64,000 nucleotides of DNA from positions 141,161-205,160 of the forward strand of contig OY288106.1 in NCBI GenBank assembly GCA_958431155.1. The letters are read 5' to 3'. Below the pieces are notes generated by a model. That model ran no database searches. It was not told the origin of the DNA and was given only the letters and a program-made list of their open reading frames with translations. The translations under genes and the position numbers were made by a program. Every line of letters begins with the position of its first letter. Positions within the stretch are counted from its first letter, which is position 1. Source of the stretch: an uncultured candidatus Porisulfidus sp. Its GTDB lineage: Bacteria > Pseudomonadota > Gammaproteobacteria > Poriferisulfidales > Poriferisulfidaceae. This document shows positions 9,244-18,972 of this stretch, in pieces.

Positions 9244-10748
9244 CAGATCGCCACCTCGATCGGGGTGATGACGATCATCAGTTCCCGGTTGGTCCGCTCC
9301 AGGGTGGAGGCCGCAAAAGCCCGGCACAGGAAGTGATCGCAGTTCAGTTGGTGGGCGGCCTGGAGCGACCGGCTCTGGATCAGTCCGCCGAGCAGGATGG
9401 GCTTGCCGCTGCGGGTGATGGCCAGCGTGGCCATTTCCTGGATGGCGATGTTGGGCCGCACCACGGTGGAGACGCCGGTCTCGAACTCGCTGTGCGAGCG
9501 GATCGACGACAGCACCGGGACGACTTCCACCAGGATAGAGCCGTCATGGCGCATGCGCGGGGTGACGGCGATACGGAAGCCGACCCGAACATGTTCGAAC
9601 TGGGTTGACAGGATCGGTTCGATGCGACCCTCGCCGAGCACCAGGTCGGTGCTGGCGATGAAGCTGACCTCTTCCCCGTCGCCGAGGAACGTCGTCATGC
9701 CGTTGATAACGGTGAACACCGGGTCGCTGCGCACCGTGACCTGACCGTGCCGCGACAACTGCTGCACCATTGCGTTTAGGCTCCAGCGCCCGAATTCCAA
9801 TGCCGCATCGACCTCCCAGGCTCCGCTGGCGCGCACGAAGGACAGTCCGCCGGGGGCGGTGCGGGAGATCGCGATGCGCCGGTCCACCGAATCGTAGAGC
9901 ACGCCCAGATCCAGCCCGCCGCCCGCTCCTTCCTCGCGGGAAACATCGAGGATGGCGACAGCCATCAGGATCTGTCGCGCCCCCCGCCGGGTCTGCTCGG
10001 TCAGCCAGGCGTCGAGTTCCTGGATGCGTGCAACCGGGCCCCGTGCGCGCAGCAGGCCCAAGCGCTGGTCCGCGACCAGCCAGGTCTGGAGGGGTGCGCC
10101 TTGCACCGATGCCGTCCCGGTCCCGGACAAGCCCAGGATCGAACGTGCGTTGGCGAGCAGGTCGTCCCACGGGGAGTCCGTGTGGTCATAGGTCACCGTG
10201 GAGGATCCTTCTTCGGACTCCTCGTCGCCTTCGCCTTCTCTGCCGACGGCGGAGGATGACAGCGAGACGGCCTGGCCGACCTTGAGTTTCGCCTGGCCGT
10301 GGCTGGCGAAGGTGCTGACGTCCCAGGATCGTGTCAGGTAGGACGAGACGTGCACGATCGGGTGCTCGGTATCCAGTTCCAGCGCGTAGCCAGTCATCCC
10401 CTCCAGGATTTCAAGGTACTGTTGCAGGCTGAGGTTGTTGACGCGGACGCTGTAGCGTCGGTCCAGGTCGATTTCCGGGGTGGTGGGGACGACGTTCAGG
10501 GCCGGGTCGGCCCGCGTCAGGCACTCGCTCAGTGTGGCGTCCCTGAGGTTGAGGGTGACGGACAGCCCGGAATTCTCCGCGTGTGGTCGCCTGACACGGA
10601 CGAATGGCCGGGGCGGCGCCGGCGAAGCCGGGGTCGCAGCCGGGACGTCCAGCGGCTGCGGCGAATGGACCGCGTCGGGCGAGATCTGCGGTCCGGCGCA
10701 GGCGCAGAGCATGAGCGCGAGCGTGGGCGGTGCGGCGCGCGAAGTCAT
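9243..10748 (-). CDS. secretin, outer-membrane lipoprotein (BfpB/TcpC/PilN-R64 class)
   Basis: Lipobox LALMLCACAG; N0/STN-like modules; C-terminal secretin domain (VRPNIAIQEMATLAI..GKPILLGGLI..RELMIVITP); ATGA overlap with upstream gene; the 766-aa ORF N-extension is an R/P-rich artefact. Confidence 0.88.
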   Translation of the reverse strand: MTSRAAPPTLALMLCACAGPQISPDAVHSPQPLDVPAATPASPAPPRPFVRVRRPHAENSGLSVTLNLRDATLSECLTRADPALNVVPTTPEIDLDRRYSVRVNNLSLQQYLEILEGMTGYALELDTEHPIVHVSSYLTRSWDVSTFASHGQAKLKVGQAVSLSSSAVGREGEGDEESEEGSSTVTYDHTDSPWDDLLANARSILGLSGTGTASVQGAPLQTWLVADQRLGLLRARGPVARIQELDAWLTEQTRRGARQILMAVAILDVSREEGAGGGLDLGVLYDSVDRRIAISRTAPGGLSFVRASGAWEVDAALEFGRWSLNAMVQQLSRHGQVTVRSDPVFTVINGMTTFLGDGEEVSFIASTDLVLGEGRIEPILSTQFEHVRVGFRIAVTPRMRHDGSILVEVVPVLSSIRSHSEFETGVSTVVRPNIAIQEMATLAITRSGKPILLGGLIQSRSLQAAHQLNCDHFLCRAFAASTLERTNRELMIVITPIEVAI

Positions 10749-11515
10749 AGCTGTTCCAGCACGACCAGCTTCTGGTCTTCGAAGACATGCAGGACAAGTT
10801 CGTCCTGGGTCTGGTTTCCGAGTTTCCGGGTCAGTTCGGTCAGGGCGTCCCACCAAGTGGTTGAAGAAATCAGCGAGATGTGGGTTTGCAGCAGGGCGGG
10901 CGGGACTTCCGGACGCAGTTTCCAGCCGACAGGAACGATCAAGTCCAGCGCCTCCTGCAGGGTCATGTCCTCGACGAAGATCTCGGCAGGGTCGTGCAGG
11001 CTGGTCGGCAGGGACAGATCGACCGTTGCCGCGTCCGGACCCGGATCGCCCGTGGCCAGACTTTGCGCGTCTTCGATTTCGAGGGGAGGGGCCTGCCGCT
11101 CCAGCTGCGCCTCCCACTCCTCGGCCGGGTAGATGATCACTGTGCGATACAACGGGTTGACTTTCAGGCGCCAGGCGCTGCCGGCCAGGACGGCCAAGGC
11201 TTCCGACAGGTGGATGGGTCCGAGATCGCGATGGATTTCGGGCAGGGGCTGAGGCATCAGGATGGCGTTCGCCCAATGGCTGCGTCGTTCGTCTAGGCGG
11301 TAGCCCGAACGTGTCAGCAGATGGTTCACGGCCTCGCCGACGGTGGCGATTTCCTGCGGAAACCGGACTTGGGTCAGGGTGACCTGAAGCGGGTGCCGCT
11401 GCGCGTGGCTGCTGCCGGGCATCAGGTAGGCGTAACGGGCGATGGCGACGGGGTCTCCGGCAGCCAGTCCCACGCCGGGGAGGACAAGGCAGAAGGCGAG
11501 AAGAGATCCACGCAT
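10745..11515 (-). CDS. periplasmic protein with two tandem STN/secretin-N-like modules (TcpQ/BfpG position; putative secretin partner)
   Basis: Signal peptide MRGSLLAFCLVLPGVGLAAG; repeats LQVTLTQVRFPQEIATVGEAVNHLL and MTLQEALDLIVPVGWKL; first gene of operon, GGAG RBS. Confidence 0.55.
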   Translation of the reverse strand: MRGSLLAFCLVLPGVGLAAGDPVAIARYAYLMPGSSHAQRHPLQVTLTQVRFPQEIATVGEAVNHLLTRSGYRLDERRSHWANAILMPQPLPEIHRDLGPIHLSEALAVLAGSAWRLKVNPLYRTVIIYPAEEWEAQLERQAPPLEIEDAQSLATGDPGPDAATVDLSLPTSLHDPAEIFVEDMTLQEALDLIVPVGWKLRPEVPPALLQTHISLISSTTWWDALTELTRKLGNQTQDELVLHVFEDQKLVVLEQL

Positions 11516-11561
11516 GGGCAGGCTCCGGGTTCGGGCCTGCCACATTAGATCAACGGAAAGG

Positions 11562-11624
11562 CGAAATCAAGGAAAAATGGTCAAAATTTTTTAACCATTT
11601 TTATTTCAAAGAAATCAATAAGTT
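11562..11624. repeat. AT-rich near-palindromic element, copy A (core GGTCAAAATTTTTTAACC) in promoter region of pilus operon
   Basis: ~85% identical over ~60 bp to copy B at 12608-12668; only two such elements in window; low-GC island in high-GC DNA. Confidence 0.7.
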
Positions 11625-11648
11625 ATGCAGAAGAAACGCGTAGAGGGC

Positions 11649-12524
11649 CTAATTCCGGAAAACCTTCGCCAGTCTCAGTGAAAAATACCAAAGCCCCAAG
11701 ACGAGAATGCCCAGCCAAGCGACGCCGGCCCAGTTGCCCGATGCGTCGCTGCCGAGCAAGGCGGGCCCGAAGGGGCCGGGATAGGTAAAGAACTGGAAGG
11801 ATTTGAGGCTGAACACCATGGCGGCGTGCGCGCCGATGCAGAATGCCAGACAGCCGGTCCGCAGGCGCAGCATCCCGAGGCCGAGGCCGATCAGGATCAA
11901 TAGGCAGAGGCGCGGCATCTGCTCAAGCCATTGGTCAGGCATTTCGAGCGTGGCGTTGGCCAGCAGCATCCACCCCCCGGCCCAGTGGTCTGCCAAGGCC
12001 GGGTCGGGGGTCGGGTTGAGGAAGTGGATCCCGGTGTAGAGCAGGGCCGAGGCTGTCAACGGCATCCAGTAACCGGACACCCGCGACAGCAGCAGGCCGC
12101 GGAAATACAATTCCTCCACCGTGGCGATGGCCAGCGCCGCCGCCAGGTATCCGGCGAGCGTGTAGGTCAGTTCGAGGCTCCACATCCAGGGGTCCAGAAA
12201 GCGCGCGTTCATCTCAAGCAAGAAGAGCCACAGGGGGATCAGCAGGACGACCATGAGTGAGAAGGCGAGCAGTCCCTGCACGAGGAGGGATTCAATGCCA
12301 CCCCGAAGGCCGAGGGTGTCGCGGCTGACCCGCCGTCGCGCCCACAGCACGAGGATCACGACGGCGACCAGCAGTGCGCCGTACTTGACGAGTTTGTGGT
12401 GCGGGACCGGCAATGGCCACAACGCATAGACCAGACCCCACAGAAAGGCACCGCCCGCCAGCGCGGCGAGCAGCAGGAGGGCGTAGGTCCAAAAACTGCG
12501 CATGGGGACAGTCGCAATTATCAC
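11649..12524 (-). CDS. CPBP family intramembrane glutamic endopeptidase (CAAX protease / Abi family)
   Basis: 291 aa polytopic; motifs VEELYFRGLLL (EExxxR), TGIHFLN (FxxxH), HAAMVFS. Confidence 0.85.
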   Translation of the reverse strand: MIIATVPMRSFWTYALLLLAALAGGAFLWGLVYALWPLPVPHHKLVKYGALLVAVVILVLWARRRVSRDTLGLRGGIESLLVQGLLAFSLMVVLLIPLWLFLLEMNARFLDPWMWSLELTYTLAGYLAAALAIATVEELYFRGLLLSRVSGYWMPLTASALLYTGIHFLNPTPDPALADHWAGGWMLLANATLEMPDQWLEQMPRLCLLILIGLGLGMLRLRTGCLAFCIGAHAAMVFSLKSFQFFTYPGPFGPALLGSDASGNWAGVAWLGILVLGLWYFSLRLAKVFRN

Positions 12525-12607
12525 ATGATTTTCAGCGACTTAGCATGATCGGTTATGCCCGGGCGGATTTTGGGCGAAACCTATCAGAATGGCTCAGACA
12601 GGAGCGT

Positions 12608-12668
12608 CAAGTCAAGGAAAAACGGTCAAAATTTTTAGACCATTTTTTCTTCAAAACAATCAACATGT
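12608..12668. repeat. AT-rich near-palindromic element, copy B (core GGTCAAAATTTTTAGACC = GGTC-N10-GACC) in divergent CPBP/XRE promoter region
   Basis: Perfect 4-10-4 inverted repeat with flanking GGAAAAA/TTTTTTC arms; overlaps XRE start codon region. Confidence 0.7.
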
Positions 12669-12979
12669 TAGAGCATAATCCGGCCTTCTGGCGAAGAGAT
12701 TTCAAATGGCGCTTCGCAATTAAGTGTGGAAATCGGGGGGCGAAGTCCCGGAACGAGGAGTCTTTTCCGATTGACGTGGCCGACCACCTGCTGGTGGGCA
12801 AGAATGCCGTCGAGGTGTACCGGACCTATCGCGGCCTGACCCAGAAGCAACTGGCCGAAGCCGCCGGAATCAACGCGGCTTATTTCTCGCAGATTGAAGG
12901 AGGACGGCGTACCGAATCCGTCCGGATCTTGACAGCCATTGCCGAGGCTCTGGACATCAACGTCGGCTCGTTGATCTGA
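12665..12979 (+). CDS. XRE-family helix-turn-helix transcriptional regulator
   Basis: 104 aa; HTH LTQKQLAEAAGINAAYFSQIEGGRR; internal Met start chosen (long ORF N-extension is R/P-rich artefact). Confidence 0.7.
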   Translation: MLEHNPAFWRRDFKWRFAIKCGNRGAKSRNEESFPIDVADHLLVGKNAVEVYRTYRGLTQKQLAEAAGINAAYFSQIEGGRRTESVRILTAIAEALDINVGSLI

Positions 12980-13068
12980 GCCGCTGCCTTTCCTCGATTT
13001 TGGCCATTCGAAGGGAGGGGAAAATTCCGGACATCCGGTTTTCTCTATACTATTAAGTCTGCGACAGG

Positions 13069-13154
<86 letters not shown>

Positions 13155-13177
13155 CGCCCTCCTGCACAACAAGAATC

Positions 13178-14482
13178 ATGGAAACCTCTCTTGAAGTTTT
13201 AGGGTCGACGGCGCGCGCCTTACGGGTCACCGTACCGCAGCAGCAGTTCGTCGAGCAGGTCGAGAACCGTCTCCGCCAGCTTTCCCGCACCCTGCGCATC
13301 AAGGGCTTCCGTCCGGGCAAGGTGCCGGTGCAGGTGGTCCGACAGCGCCACCTTCCGCAGGTCTACGGCGAAGTGGTGGAAAAATTGGCCAACGATTCCC
13401 TGCGCGAGGCGCTGGCTGCGGAGAAGGTGCAGCCGGTGGTCGACCCGCGGGTTACGGTGGAAGAGTACGGTGAAGACCGCCCGATGAAATACCAGGCCCG
13501 GTTCGACGTGTACCCGGAGCTCGCGGAATCGAAGATCGCGGGAGTCGAGCTGACCGACCCTGAGGTCGCGGTGGAAGACGCGGAGGTGGAGGAAGGGATG
13601 GAGCGGCTGCGCCGCCAGGATGTCGACTGGAAAGTGACGGAGAGGACAGCGGCGGCCGGCGACCAGGTGGCGTTTCTCTACACGACCTGCGGGATGGACG
13701 AGACGCTCGCGGCGATCGCCGAGGACAGCCCGGACCTGGCCCTGATACTTGAGCCGGGGGCGATGCTCGAGGAGTTGCATGAACACCTCCGGGGCATGGG
13801 CGCGGGGGACGAGAAGTCGGTCCAGGTGGCTTTTGCGGAGAGGGCCGACGGCCATCCCCTGTCCGGGCAGACCCGACAGTTCCGGATCCGAGTGCGGGAA
13901 GTGCGCGAGGCCGTGCTGCCGGATTGGGAGGACGCGGCGTGGCTTGCGAAGTGCGGCGGCGCGGGCGCGACGCACGAGACGATCCGGGATTCCGTGCGTG
14001 CGCACCTGGATTATCGGCGGGTGGAGATGCGGCGCGAATACCTGGCCGAGCAGATCACGCAGGGCCTGGCGGCAGCCAAGGAGCCGGCGTTGCCGGTGCC
14101 CGAGTCCCTTCGGGAGTGGTGTCTGTCGGTGCGCCTGAAGGAAATGGGGGTTCCGCCGGAGCAGGAGGAGTTGGGCGAGGACCACCCGGCGCGCCGAGTG
14201 GCGCTGATGGACGCGCAGCGAATCACGGTGTTCCAGGCATTGCGCGCGTTGAGCAGGGTGGAACCGACCGAAGAGGACCACAAGCAGATCGAGGACGCCT
14301 ATGCCGGGCAATTCAAGGACTCGGCGGCAGCCCGGCGCAATGCGCGCCAGAATCCGGACGTGCGCGGGCACCTGCAGCGCGAGGCGAGCTGGGACGCGCT
14401 CATCCGATGGACGCTGGATCGTGCTAGAGTGAATAAGGAGCGCATGACGCTGGAACAACTGGGTGCGCGAACCGGCCGATGA
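13178..14482 (+). CDS. tig: trigger factor
   Basis: 434 aa; N-term ribosome-binding motif region (GFRPGKVP), PPIase and C-terminal arm domains; followed by clpP-clpX-lon. Confidence 0.93.
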
Positions 14483-15105
14483 AGGACATTCGATCCCAAT
14501 ACATCCCCATGGTGGTGGAGCAGAGCGCGCGCGGCGAGCGCGCGTACGACATTTATTCGCGCCTGCTCAAGGAGCGGGTGGTCTTCATCGTCGGCGCCAT
14601 CGACGACCATGTGGCCAACCTGGTGGTGGCGCAGATCCTGTTCCTGGAGTCGGAGAACCCGGACAAGGACATTTCCCTGTACATCAACTCCCCGGGCGGT
14701 TCGGTCAGCGCCGGGCTCGCGGTGCACGACACGATGCAGTTCTGCCGCTCGGACGTCAGCACCCTGTGCATCGGGCAGGCCGCCAGCATGGGTGCGCTGC
14801 TGCTTGCGGCCGGGGCGCCCGGCAAGCGCTACGCGCTGCCGCATTCGCGCATCATGATCCACCAGCCGCTCGGCGGCTTCGAGGGGCAGGCCACCGACGT
14901 GGACATCCACGCCAAGGAGATCCTGCGGGCGCGAGAGCAGGTCAACCAGGTGCTGGCGCGGCATACCGGCAAGAAAGTTGATAAAATCCGGCAGGATACG
15001 GAGCGCGACCACTTCATGAGCAGCGAGGACGCGCGGAAGTACGGCATCGTCGACCAGGTGCTGACCACCCGGACGGAACTGCTCAACAATACGGATTCCG
15101 GTTGA
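14479..15105 (+). CDS. clpP: ATP-dependent Clp protease proteolytic subunit
   Basis: 208 aa; catalytic Ser in [14 protein letters not shown], His in IMIHQP; ATGA overlap with tig. Confidence 0.96.
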
Positions 15106-15130
15106 CCGGCGTGCGGGGCACAGGCAGGGC

Positions 15131-16396
15131 ATGAGCATGGAGAAAGGGAAGGAGACCAAGGCGCCGTTGCGCTGTTCGTTCTGCAGGAAGAACCAGCACG
15201 AGGTGCGCAAGCTGATTGCCGGGCCGAAGGTCTACATCTGCGACGAGTGCGTGGCCCTGTGCAACGAGATCATCCGCGACGAACTGAAGGTGGAGACCGA
15301 GCAGCGGCCGGATTCGCTGCCCGGCCCCGAGGACATCTACGCTTCGCTCGAAGAGCACGTGGTGGGTCAGGAGCAGGCCAAGAAGGCGTTGGCAGTGGCC
15401 GTTTACAACCACTACAAGCGGGTGAGTTCGCGGGCCGACGAGGACGATGACGTCGAGTTGGCCAAAAGCAACATCCTATTGATCGGCCCGACCGGTTCGG
15501 GCAAGACCCTGCTCGCGGAGACGCTGGCGAACCGCCTGAACGTCCCGTTCACGATCGCGGACGCGACCACGCTGACCGAGGCTGGCTACGTGGGCGAGGA
15601 TGTGGAGAACATCATCCAGAAGCTGCTGCAGAAGTGCGACTACGATGTGCAGCGCGCGCAGAACGGGATCGTGTACATCGACGAGATCGACAAGATTTCG
15701 CGCAAGTCCGACAACCCTTCGATCACGCGTGACGTCTCCGGGGAGGGAGTGCAGCAGGCGCTGCTCAAGCTGATCGAGGGCACCGTCGCCTCGGTGCCGC
15801 CGCAGGGTGGCCGCAAGCATCCGCAGCAGGAGTTCCTGCAGGTCAACACCAGCGACATTCTGTTCATCTGCGGCGGCGCGTTCGCGGGCCTGGACAAGGT
15901 GATCCGCGCCCGGACCGAGAAGAGCGGTATCGGCTTCGGTGCCGAGATCTACAGCCGGGAGATACGCGATTCGCACGACATCCTGCAGCAGGTCCAGCCG
16001 GAGGACCTGATCCACTACGGGCTGATTCCGGAGTTCGTGGGCCGGTTGCCGATGGTGGCGGTGCTGGAGGAGTTGGACGAAGGCATGCTGGTGCGGGTGC
16101 TGGTGGAGCCGAAGAACGCGATTACCCGGCAGTACAAGAAGCTGTTCTCGATGGAAGGCGTAACGCTGGAGTTCCGAGAAAACGCCTTGGAAGCGGTGGC
16201 GCGGCAGGCAAAGGAGCGCAAGACCGGCGCACGCGGCCTGCGCACCATCCTGGAGACCGTGCTGCTCGACACCATGTACGAACTGCCCTCGTTCGAGGGC
16301 GTGGTCCGGGTGGTTATCGACGAGGCCGTGGTCCTCGGCGAGAAGTCGCCGTACCTCATTTACGAGGACCCGGCCGTCGAAGAACGCCTGGCCTGA
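15131..16396 (+). CDS. clpX: ATP-dependent Clp protease ATP-binding subunit ClpX
   Basis: 421 aa; zinc-binding CSFC..CDEC, Walker A GPTGSGKT. Confidence 0.96.
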
Positions 16397-16444
16397 AAAT
16401 CCGGTACGAGACCAGGATTTCGGCAGGATCCGGACGGAAAGAAG

Positions 16445-16471
16445 TTGAAAACCGAGGTTTTCGCCCTTATG
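16445..16471 (+). promoter_or_regulatory. sigma-32-type heat-shock promoter candidate for lon (TTGAAA-N13-CCCTTATG), -10 overlapping inverted repeat CCCTTAT-g-ATAAGGG
   Basis: Match to sigma-32 consensus CTTGAAA / CCCCATNT upstream of lon start. Confidence 0.5.
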
Positions 16472-16518
16472 ATAAGGGGTAGGACGCGCTACAACCGACA
16501 CATTCGAACAGGAGCCTC

Positions 16519-18972
16519 ATGAGCAGAAAACCTGCGCCGAAAGGAACGGAACCCGAATCCGGGGAGCCCGACGGCAACCTGTTGCTCCCGGTCTTGCCGC
16601 TGCGCGACGTGGTGGTGTACCCGGGCATGGTGATTCCGCTGTTCGTGGGCCGCCGGAAGTCCATCCGGGCGGTGGAGGCGGCGATGGCGGCCAGCAAGCA
16701 GATCCTGCTGCTGACCCAGAAGAAGGCCGAGACCGACGATCCGGATCCGGGCCACATCTATTCGGTTGGCACAGTCAGTTCCATCCTGCAGTTGCTGGAA
16801 CTCCCGGACGGTACGGTCAAGGTGCTGGTGGAAGGCTCGCATCGGGCGCGCGTGGGACGCTACGAGCACACCGACGACTACTTCAGTGCGCAGACCGAGA
16901 CGCTGGCCGAGACCCCGGGGGCGGAATCGGCCGAGATCGAGGGGCTGGTGCGCTCGCTGCACAAGGGCTTCGAGCAGTACGTCAAGGTCAACAAGAAGAT
17001 CCCGCCGGAGGCCCTGGCGTCCCTGTCCGGGATCGACAACGCCTCGCGCCTGACCGACACGATTTCGGCGCACATGACCCTGAAGTTGGACGAGAAGCAG
17101 AGGATCCTGGAAATCCTGTCGGTGCGGGAGCGCATCGAGGCGCTGCTCAAGCTGATCGAGTCGGAGTTGGACATCCTGAGCCTGGAGAAGCAGATCCGTG
17201 GCCGGGTCAAGCAGCAGATGGAGAAGAGCCAGCGCGAGTACTACCTGAACGAGCAGATGAAGGCGATCCAGCAGGAGCTCTCCGACAATGACGAGGGCGC
17301 GAGCGAGGCCGACGAGCTGGCCGAGAAGATCGAGGAGGCCGGCATGTCGGCGGAGGCCGAGAAGAAGGCCACGCACGAACTGGGCAAGCTGCGGATGATG
17401 TCGCCGATGTCGGCGGAGGCGACGGTGGTCCGCAACTACATCGACTGGCTGGTCAATGTGCCTTGGAAGAAGCGTTCCCGGGTGTGCCGCGACCTCAAGA
17501 AGGCCGAGCGGGTGCTGGAGAAGGACCATTACGGCCTGGACAAGGTCAAGGAGCGCATCCTGGAATACCTGGCGGTGCAGAACCGCGTGAAGAAGATCAA
17601 GGGTCCGATCCTGTGCCTGGTTGGCCCGCCGGGGGTCGGCAAGACCAGCCTGGGGCAGTCGATTGCCCGCGCCACCGGGCGCGAATTCACCCGCATGTCC
17701 CTGGGCGGGGTGCGCGACGAGGCCGAGATTCGCGGGCACCGCCGTACTTACATCGGTTCCCTGCCCGGGAAGATCATCCAGAACATGTCGCGGGTCGGGG
17801 TCCGCAACCCGCTGTTCCTGCTCGACGAGATCGACAAGATGGCGATGGATTTCCGTGGCGACCCGGCATCGGCGTTGCTGGAGGTGCTCGATCCCGAGCA
17901 GAACCACATGTTCAACGATCACTACCTGGAGGTGGACTTCGACCTGTCGGACGTGATGTTCGTGTGCACGGCCAACACGCTGAAGATCCCTCCGGCCCTG
18001 CTGGACCGGGTGGAAGTCATCCGCATCTCGGGCTATACCGAGGACGAGAAGATGAACATCGCCCGGCGCTACCTGATTCCGAAGCAGATGAAGAACAATG
18101 GGCTGAAGAAGTCGGAGTTGATGATTCCCGACCGTGCGGTGCAGAGCTTGATCCGCTACTACACGCGCGAGGCGGGGGTGCGCAACCTGGAGCGCGAGCT
18201 GTCCAAGATCTGCCGAAAAACCGTCAAGCAGCTGCTGCTGAAGCCGCGCAAGGAGCAGATCCGGATCACCGCGCCGCAGCTTCGGAAACTGCTCGGCGTG
18301 CACCGTTTCCGCTACGGGCTGGCCGACGAGAACAACCAGGTCGGCCAGGTCAACGGCCTGGCCTGGACCGAGGTCGGCGGGGAGCTGCTGCGGGTGGAGG
18401 CCGCGATCGTCACCGGTTCGGGGAAACTGATTTACACTGGGCAACTTGGCGACATCATGCAGGAGTCAATCAAGGCGGCGCAGACGGTGGTACGCAGTCG
18501 CGCCAAGACGCTGGGCATCCAGCAGGACTTCCATGAGAAGAAGGACATTCACATACATGTCCCGGAAGGGGCGACCCCCAAGGATGGACCGAGCGCGGGC
18601 ATCACCATGACGGTGGCAATCGTGTCTGCGCTCACCAACATCCCAGCCAAGGCCGAAGTCGCGATGACCGGGGAGATCACGCTGCGCGGCGAGATCCTTC
18701 CGATCGGCGGGCTGAAGGAGAAGTTGCTGGCCGCCATGCGCGGGGGCATCCAGACGGTGGTCATTCCGAAGGAGAACGAGAAGGACCTGGAGGAGTTGCC
18801 GCGCAACATCCGGCAGGCCCTGAACATCGTCCCTTGCCAGTGGGTTGACGAAACCATGGAACTCGCCTTGGAGTGGATGCCGCAACCGGAATTGGAGGAA
18901 GAAGGCCAGCCGGCAGGCGACAAGCCGCTGCCGGAGAAAGAGACCCAGCCGGACCTGGCCATTCATCACTGA
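16519..18972 (+). CDS. lon: ATP-dependent Lon protease
   Basis: 817 aa; Walker [10 protein letters not shown], catalytic PKDGPSAG and K dyad. Confidence 0.97.

Follow-up and report, generated by a model that had tools for sequence, protein, structure and literature searches.

A palindromic promoter-operator cassette at pilus, CPBP and DUF1640 genes of Candidatus Porisulfidus, probably read by a dimeric regulator encoded elsewhere

A 64,000-nt stretch of DNA from an uncultured Candidatus Porisulfidus sp. (contig OY288106.1 of assembly GCA_958431155.1; hereafter, the window) carries two copies, A and B, of an AT-rich palindromic element on either side of a gene for a CPBP (Rce1-like) intramembrane protease. 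This gene (11649-12503, minus strand; PF02517, E=7e-12) has homologues that span 100% of its length; exact look-up of the encoded protein returned no record, and its homologues were used instead. Beyond copy A lies a type IVb pilus cluster (2414-11515, minus strand) that encodes PilL2, a secretin, a PilP-like protein, a GspE/PilQ-type ATPase, a platform protein and prepilins. Its first gene, pilL2 (10745-11515, 256 aa), and the secretin gene (9243-10748) were delimited by tblastn with proteins of relatives; genes for the PilP-like protein (7426-8010), the ATPase (5726-7429) and the platform protein (4120-5265) follow on the same strand. An open reading frame (ORF) at 9243-11543 (minus strand), readable as a 757-aa PilL-secretin fusion when translated from 11516, was rejected as a frame artefact, since the tblastn searches resolved two genes in different frames. 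The L001 orthologue of pilL2 matched TIGR03748 ('PFGI-1 class ICE element type IV pilus protein PilL2', ICE standing for integrative and conjugative element) with 92.5 bits against a cutoff of 64. Beyond copy B lie an XRE-family helix-turn-helix (HTH) ORF (12665-12979, plus strand; 104 aa from its ATG; HTH_31, HTH_3) and a tRNA-Leu(tag) gene (13069-13154, plus strand), which forms the fixed right-hand boundary of a variable CPBP-tRNA interval. All genes served by copies A and B are on the minus strand, with the XRE ORF on the plus strand. After the tRNA-Leu gene come the housekeeping block tig-clpP-clpX-lon, tRNA-Val and tRNA-Asp, in this order (13106-18972); pth and ychF border the ICE-class pilus cluster on the opposite side. 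The pilus genes thus form part of a conserved chromosomal gene order and of no obvious island.

A repeat search of the window recovered the two copies as one family of 62-nt repeats (copy A, 11564-11625; copy B, 12609-12670) with 84% identity, close to the 85% estimated in a first-pass annotation that had been made from the sequence of this stretch. Pairwise alignment of both regions decayed outside the 62-nt block. Three sub-patterns of the element, each searched with up to 3 mismatches, matched the 64-kb window only at copies A and B, against 0.00 matches expected from shuffled sequences, and a search with nhmmer, for which 60 related cassettes provided the profile, likewise found these two sites and no others. 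Copy A is located between the CPBP stop codon (11649) and pilL2, and copy B between the CPBP start codon (12503) and the XRE ORF, so that the copies bracket the protease gene as had been proposed. The core of copy A, GGTCAAAATTTTTTAACC (11579-11596), is a GGTC-N10-AACC palindrome whose extended arms, AAAAATGGTC and AACCATTTTT, span 11573-11602. Copy B has the perfect GGTC-N10-GACC core GGTCAAAATTTTTAGACC (12624-12641) that the first-pass annotation had described. Each copy has 16 complementary positions among the first 22 per arm, which gives an imperfect dyad of approximately 42-44 bp where about 40 bp had been claimed, and the surrounding DNA measured 61-66% G+C, in agreement with the earlier figure of more than 60%. 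Judged by the best nhmmer scores, both copies are oriented along the minus strand: copy A (E=6e-12) faces pilL2 and copy B (E=1e-14) faces CPBP, with a plus-strand match of copy B (7e-12) that also faces the XRE ORF.

Promoter-like sequences were found in a fixed register next to both palindromes, consistent with the proposal that the elements mark promoters. For pilL2, a predicted -35 hexamer (TTGATT, 11565-11570, minus strand) lies 8 nt from palindrome A and is separated by 17 nt from a predicted -10 hexamer (TAATGT, 11542-11547, minus strand). The former is TTGATT or TTGCTT in the same register in all relatives, and the latter is conserved as TAATGT or TAATCT. The pair TTGATT-17-TAATGT, whose spacing falls within the 17±1 nt typical of sigma-70-type promoters, ends 26 nt before the pilL2 ATG with a GGAG sequence in between, and would place transcription initiation near 11535. 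For CPBP, the putative -35 hexamer (TTGACT, 12610-12615, minus strand) is also 8 nt from its palindrome and is followed, after 18 nt, by a candidate -10 hexamer (CATTCT, 12586-12591, minus strand); in L099, TTGACT-18-CATCAT occupies the same register. In the other direction, a promoter-like pair TTCAAA-18-CATAAT (12650-12679, plus strand; 9/12 match) faces the XRE ORF, again 8 nt from the palindrome. L094 and L099 share the CATAAT, with TTCCAA and TTGCCA, respectively, as the corresponding -35 sequences. Integration host factor (IHF) recognizes the consensus WATCAANNNNTTR. Exact matches to this consensus occur in the 64 kb only at 11613-11625 (AATCAATAAGTTA, plus strand, 17 nt distal to palindrome A) and at 12658-12670 (AATCAACATGTTA, plus strand, 16 nt distal to palindrome B), with 0.25 expected, and both have an AT-rich 5' flank. 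The copy B box contains the ATG at 12665 and, in the lineage of the window, falls within the spacer of the XRE-facing pair. Between the predicted pilL2 -10 hexamer and the ATG, an inverted repeat GGCAGGC-N11-GCCTGCC (11517-11541, minus strand) encloses the GGAG ribosome-binding site. This repeat is conserved in L001, L002, L005 and L006, and could act either as a further operator, at +1, or as a hairpin in the leader that hides the ribosome-binding site.

Alignment of 61 unique cassettes, read toward the downstream gene, showed a common order of elements: a YAANNNNTTGATW box, 17 nt, the 30-bp palindrome AAAAATGGTC-N10-GACCATTTTT, a -35-like TTGAYT, 16-18 nt and a weak -10-like nAnnnT. The aligned core reads AAAAAT GGTC (T/A)(A/G)AAAATT(C/T)(C/T) GACC ATTTTT, followed by cC TTGAYT. 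Its best-conserved positions are the symmetric GGTC/GACC and the A5/T5 arms, and TTG starts 8 nt after GACC in 69 of the 70 module-strand matches collected. An IHF-consensus box was present in register in 22 of the 61 unique cassettes as an exact match and in 30 with at most one mismatch, and covers most unidirectional cassettes. Cassettes upstream of DUF1640 paralogues combine TTGAYT or TTGCCT, after 16-18 nt, with CAYCAT. Copy B of most genomes carries two -35-like TTGCYT sequences, one at a distance of 8 nt on either side of its palindrome, of which one is directed toward CPBP and the other toward a DUF1640 gene; on the DUF1640 side, TTGCYT is followed after 17 nt by CACGAT or CAGGAT before the gene. 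The long dyad of copy B can be explained by these two divergent promoters sharing one operator, with the outer CAAGG/CCTTG arms corresponding to their -35 regions. The signature of a dimeric operator that the first-pass annotation had recognized was retained for the near-invariant GGTC/GACC and A5/T5 positions, whereas the extended arms of about 40 bp were better read as two -35 regions.

Homologues of the CPBP protein graded from 90 to 41% identity and all came from metagenome assemblies. Relatives L001, L002, L005 and L006 (CPBP 71-90% identical) share the gene order tig - tRNA-Leu - variable gene(s) - CPBP - pilL2 - secretin, and the same synteny from tig to the secretin gene was observed in L094, L096 and L099, which carry the XRE gene and were found through XRE homologues. 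All seven have a GGT-N12-ACC palindrome at both positions, that of copy A as well as that of copy B, in which GGTC/GACC and the A5/T5 flanks are near-invariant and only a few inner bases vary. At lower identity, L007 (CPBP 58% identical) retained only the pilus-side palindrome, and L003 (62% identical, without an adjacent pilus cluster) had neither. A scan of JGI metagenomes yielded more cassettes of the same classes, including a near-identical counterpart of window copy B in L143. The interval between CPBP and tRNA-Leu (12504-13068 in the window) is a variable slot: it holds XRE alone in the window, L094 and L099, DUF1640 plus XRE in L096, DUF1640 alone in most genomes and unrelated genes, one of them for a HemolysinCabind protein, in L002, and is empty in L007. 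In Ca. Porisulfidus sp. TsSOB (L049), the CPBP-side (1152) and pilus-side (7821) cassettes are 6.7 kb apart instead of the usual distance of approximately 1 kb; the lack of an IHF-like box in the pilus-side cassette points to an insertion immediately before its palindrome.

The wider distribution of the cassette was analysed with the strict 24-nt pattern AAYGGTYNNAAAATTNNGACCRTT in 185,579 species genomes, with one genome per species. Of the 86 stretches that matched, approximately 36 belonged to about 11 Porisulfidus-type genomes, mostly with 3-5 exact matches per genome as lower bounds on copy number (RHO3_bin_14, 5; OZ243950.1, COS4_bin_16, TsSOB and CAZRSJ, 4 each; OZ241993.1, 3). OZ220480.1, with a single exact match, carries a variant palindrome (GGTCAC...GTGACC). 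Composition-based arithmetic predicts about 3e-6 chance matches per 2-Mb genome. The cassette-bearing clade consists of Candidatus Porisulfidus and of related Gammaproteobacteria associated with sponges; their chromosomes measure approximately 1.6-2.0 Mb. Every additional copy in this clade is a full cassette oriented toward a gene whose start codon lies 33-117 nt downstream. The genes thus targeted are mutually unrelated: they encode PilL2 (TIGR03748), CPBP, at least four classes of DUF1640/PF07798 paralogues and, in L008, L079 and L033, an ICE RAQPRD-family lipoprotein (TIGR01690) followed by TIGR03750, TIGR03746, TIGR03749 and TIGR03752, a gene set that constitutes the mating-pair-formation operon of PFGI-1/ICEclc-class ICEs. 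Presence of the same element at both CPBP and the pilus operon makes their co-regulation plausible, as the first-pass annotation had suggested, but the unit that it had drawn is too narrow, with further cassettes at DUF1640 genes and at the ICE type IV secretion system (T4SS) operon. The high-copy scatter that it had named as a possible refutation was not observed: repetitive extragenic palindromes and miniature inverted-repeat transposable elements occur in tens to hundreds of copies regardless of gene starts, and the cassette occurs twice per 64 kb in the window and in 3-5 exact copies per 1.8-2.0 Mb, all upstream of genes. Single-gene DUF1640 (PF07798) paralogues with MEKME-type coiled-coil repeats are scattered among housekeeping genes in Porisulfidus genomes, each behind a cassette (L034, L038, L039, L051, L067, L075, L083, L023); the 64-kb window contains none.

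Inner bases of the palindrome change in concert across unlinked copies of one lineage, giving TAAAAATTCC, AAAAAATTCT, TAAAAATTTT (the lineage of the window) and ACAAAATTGT (OZ220480.1). Such concerted change would be expected of sites that follow a single trans-acting factor. Outside the clade, AAYGGTYNNAAAATTNNGACCRTT also matched one site in approximately 35 Chryseobacterium species (L010, L014-L018 and about 30 further loci), which is apparently one orthologous site conserved among them and without relation to the Porisulfidus cassette. The remaining out-of-clade matches are scattered over AT-rich or unrelated genomes, and those examined were dismissed as coding, unrelated or uninformative on the binding protein: one in Methylomicrobium looks coding, one in a deltaproteobacterium lies inside an annotated-looking ORF, and two others are in L060 and L019. 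In L060, a gammaproteobacterial metagenome-assembled genome (MAG) of 46% GC, a perfect palindrome of about 32 bp, GTACAATGGTCAGAATTTTCTGACCATTGTAC, is located at 7859-7882 at the 3' end of a gene, with the same TGGTC...GACCA ends in an unrelated context. Three matches in a scan of viral contigs, all on contigs of 34-43% GC and without cassette context, were taken as chance.

The first-pass annotation had proposed that the HTH protein encoded next to copy B binds the palindrome, autoregulates and controls the pilus operon together with CPBP; autoregulation was taken here as self-repression. Consistent with this proposal, the XRE ORF encodes a Cro/C1-type HTH, 8 nt separate palindrome B (12624-12641) from the promoter-like pair TTCAAA-18-CATAAT, with corresponding pairs in L094 and L099, and copy B of L096 drives a DUF1640-XRE pair with XRE in second place. 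However, the comparative check suggested along with that proposal showed no co-occurrence of operator and XRE across genomes. An XRE gene was found beside CPBP in only about four lineages (the window, L094/L095, L096-L098 with the DUF1640-XRE tandem, and L099), and tblastn detected none in 13 other CPBP-tRNA-Leu intervals that keep the palindromes (L001, L002, L005, L006, L007, L013, L026, L041, L046, L049, L066, L068, L091). Two of the relatives, L005 and L150, share 92-96% DNA identity with the XRE-bearing L096 and have a clean 244-bp deletion that removes XRE codons 17-90, with palindromes identical to those of L096. Loss of XRE with retention of the palindromes indicates that the cassette is maintained independently of this gene. 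A displaced orthologue is argued against, within the sensitivity of the search, by the observation that none of the 46 clusters of XRE homologues had the complete XRE-less chromosomes OZ243950.1 or OZ220480.1 as longest contig, with both appearing among the CPBP clusters; cassettes are, moreover, found at genes far from any XRE gene. The window ORF itself also fits poorly. Most XRE homologues are 122-123 aa long and align only to the C-terminal 76% (about 79 aa) of the ORF, which lacks the N-terminal domain of approximately 45 aa of this family. Copy B does cover the ATG at 12665, as had been stated, but this codon is the start of the longest ORF only, has no Shine-Dalgarno sequence and would lie upstream of the predicted transcription start. 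In L099, the corresponding region is a non-coding leader, in which a GTG runs into a stop codon after 10 codons; the 148-aa XRE protein starts about 140 nt after the palindrome behind a proper ribosome-binding site; the window gene may accordingly start elsewhere or be a 5'-truncated remnant. Based on these comparisons, control by the adjacent XRE protein was considered improbable. A distant XRE homologue, L100, had neither a toxin partner nor a DUF1640 neighbour and was uninformative.

Two explanations that involve no dedicated DNA-binding regulator were also weighed. The cassette could be a propagated, 'mobile' strong promoter whose AT-rich core acts as an UP element or as bent DNA with IHF, with the likeness of its copies due to duplication or gene conversion. 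UP elements lie at -40 to -60, approximately where the palindrome is found. In one genome, about 37 nt are identical among five unlinked copies, in which asymmetric inner bases are always arranged the same way relative to the -35 sequence; copies A and B are alike over 62 nt in the lineage of the window versus about 40 nt elsewhere, which suggests local replacement or conversion, and DUF1640 paralogues probably took their promoter along on duplication. On the other hand, an UP element needs no symmetry, and the best-conserved positions of the cassette are precisely its symmetric ones. Terminal inverted repeats and target-site duplications appear to be lacking around the cassette: the aligned copies revealed no consistent flanking direct repeats, and a GAAATCAA repeat around copy A consists of conserved cassette parts (the TTGATT box and the -35 sequence) and not of a duplication. 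Orthologous copies, furthermore, persist at the same loci down to approximately 58-71% CPBP identity. A mobile promoter was regarded as unlikely, somewhat less so than control by XRE. An RNA hairpin that acts as a bidirectional terminator or attenuator, with copy A for example ending CPBP transcription, would account for predicted hairpins of -8 to -21 kcal/mol (z-scores of -1.9 to -6.1), for the A-tract / stem / T-tract layout and for the location of copy A 24-70 nt past the CPBP stop codon. In most genomes, however, the A-U-rich stems contain just 4 G-C pairs and incorporate the T-tract instead of being followed by it. Many copies are located between divergent genes or well away from 3' ends, and the arms are invariant and show no covariation. 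A terminator scan reported nothing at copy A or copy B, and an Rfam search of 11000-13300 (E<=1) returned only the tRNA-Leu. Action as an RNA element was accordingly judged to be highly improbable.

The interpretation that is regarded as probable is that the two copies belong to a lineage-specific promoter-operator cassette of Porisulfidus, through which a dimeric regulator encoded elsewhere co-regulates a small regulon. A dimeric, sequence-specific protein would bind the palindrome centred near -52, possibly helped by IHF. A binding protein of this kind is favoured by the symmetry and near-invariance of AAAAATGGTC/GACCATTTTT, by the fixed register with the -35 sequence, by the unrelated nature of the target genes and by the concerted changes of inner bases; from the sequence comparisons, such a regulator probably binds the palindrome, and it is very probably not the adjacent XRE protein. 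The constant 8 nt between palindrome and -35 sequence favours direct interplay with RNA polymerase, which may take the form of either activation or repression. The regulon would include the ICE-derived type IVb pilus operon (pilL2-secretin), the ICE mating-pair-formation (T4SS) operon, CPBP and several DUF1640 paralogues, and copy B would serve as a single operator between two back-to-back promoters.

Several observations weigh against this promoter-operator interpretation. The -10 hexamers are weak, the pilL2 pair scores below the threshold of a promoter scanner, and CPBP has a second, better -10-like candidate nearer to its start. A centre near -52 corresponds to no canonical class I or class II activator position. 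Within one genome, copies are near-identical over about 37 nt, including non-symmetric positions, as could also result if a promoter cassette had spread or been homogenised with no regulator of its own. Inspection of the ORFs flanking the additional cassettes for DNA-binding proteins yielded housekeeping genes and one Fur-like gene, and no convincing regulator candidate. Finally, all genomes are MAGs, and the true regulon may be wider than the exact-pattern counts, which are lower bounds. Comparison with the consensus sequences of known regulators and sigma factors did not suggest a match either: a sigma-32-like reading of CCTTGA...CACCAT requires a spacer that is 3-4 nt too long, and none of FleQ (GTC-N8-GAC), Fis (15-bp G...C), CRP, LuxR boxes and GntR/HutC (TGGTC..GACCA) appears to fit in spacing.

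Among systems with which the cassette can be compared, the regulon of ICEclc is the closest functional analogue: a common motif occurs at several conjugation-operon promoters of an element of the PFGI-1/ICEclc class. Most bimodally expressed transfer-competence promoters of ICEclc share a BisDC-associated motif (PMC9286271; PMC12409273). Similar to that motif, the cassette precedes genes of conjugation systems (TIGR03748, TIGR01690, TIGR03750, TIGR03746, TIGR03749, TIGR03752). However, the published 27-bp motif (e.g. CGGGCCGCCGTTTCCTGATATTTGCA; PMC9286271, S3 Fig) has no similarity to AAAAATGGTC-N10-GACCATTTTT, and it lies 59-274 bp from start codons, whereas the Porisulfidus palindrome is located beside the -35 sequence; the comparison thus does not support counting the cassette among the BisDC-associated promoters. 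Unlike those of ICEclc, the Porisulfidus target genes are chromosomal and syntenic between species, and the putative regulon extends to CPBP and DUF1640. In IncP plasmids, KorA and KorB operators occupy fixed positions relative to many backbone promoters. The cassette resembles this arrangement in having one palindrome at a fixed distance from the -35 sequence of several promoters and divergent pairs that share one operator, and differs from it in sequence and in its context, the chromosome of a genome-reduced symbiont. With Cro/CI- or antitoxin-type operators of XRE regulators, it shares the palindrome, the approximately 20 bp between half-site centres and the location beside the promoter of a small HTH gene; unlike those autoregulatory operators, it is repeated at 3-5 or more unlinked promoters in each genome and is also present where its supposed regulator is missing. 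Likeness to IHF-assisted promoters is predicted from the exact consensus box with its AT-rich flank, which most unidirectional cassettes carry at a fixed distance (17 nt) before the palindrome. Putative mobile promoters are near-identical promoter regions upstream of unrelated genes in one genome, and a near-identical, promoter-proximal block of about 40 nt before non-homologous genes recalls them; orthologous conservation across species, a symmetric operator-like core and the apparent absence of transposition hallmarks set the cassette apart.

Two further, more diverged direct repeats were recovered by the repeat search of the window, at 30264-30416/31128-31280 (153 nt, 73%) and at 52306-52415/52723-52832 (110 nt, 72%). 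Both probably represent paralogous or internally repeated coding sequence.

A promoter-operator motif shared by the members of a small regulon is of a familiar kind, and its modest novelty is the link between an ICE pilus and T4SS, CPBP and an expanded DUF1640 family. A literature search on Porisulfidus and DUF1640 retrieved nothing on regulation, and the putative regulon, by joining ICE-derived pilus and T4SS genes to CPBP and the uncharacterised bacterial DUF1640 family, provides a first functional context for these DUF1640 genes. The locus is also a worked example of a misleading neighbouring HTH gene, in which XRE comes and goes in a tRNA-adjacent slot and the operator stays. For an uncultured clade of sponge symbionts, the cassette represents a compact, testable cis-regulatory code and a possible marker for tracing its regulator by phylogenetic profiling. 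A more far-reaching and tentative possibility is that one master regulator keeps a domesticated ICE apparatus (type IVb pilus and MPF-G T4SS), the membrane-anchored coiled-coil DUF1640 family and CPBP under a single switch. If so, genome-reduced sponge symbionts would have made a programme for host interaction or DNA exchange out of a former mobile element, and the specificities of operator and regulator would be co-evolving between lineages (GGTCTA...CCGACC versus GGTCAC...GTGACC).

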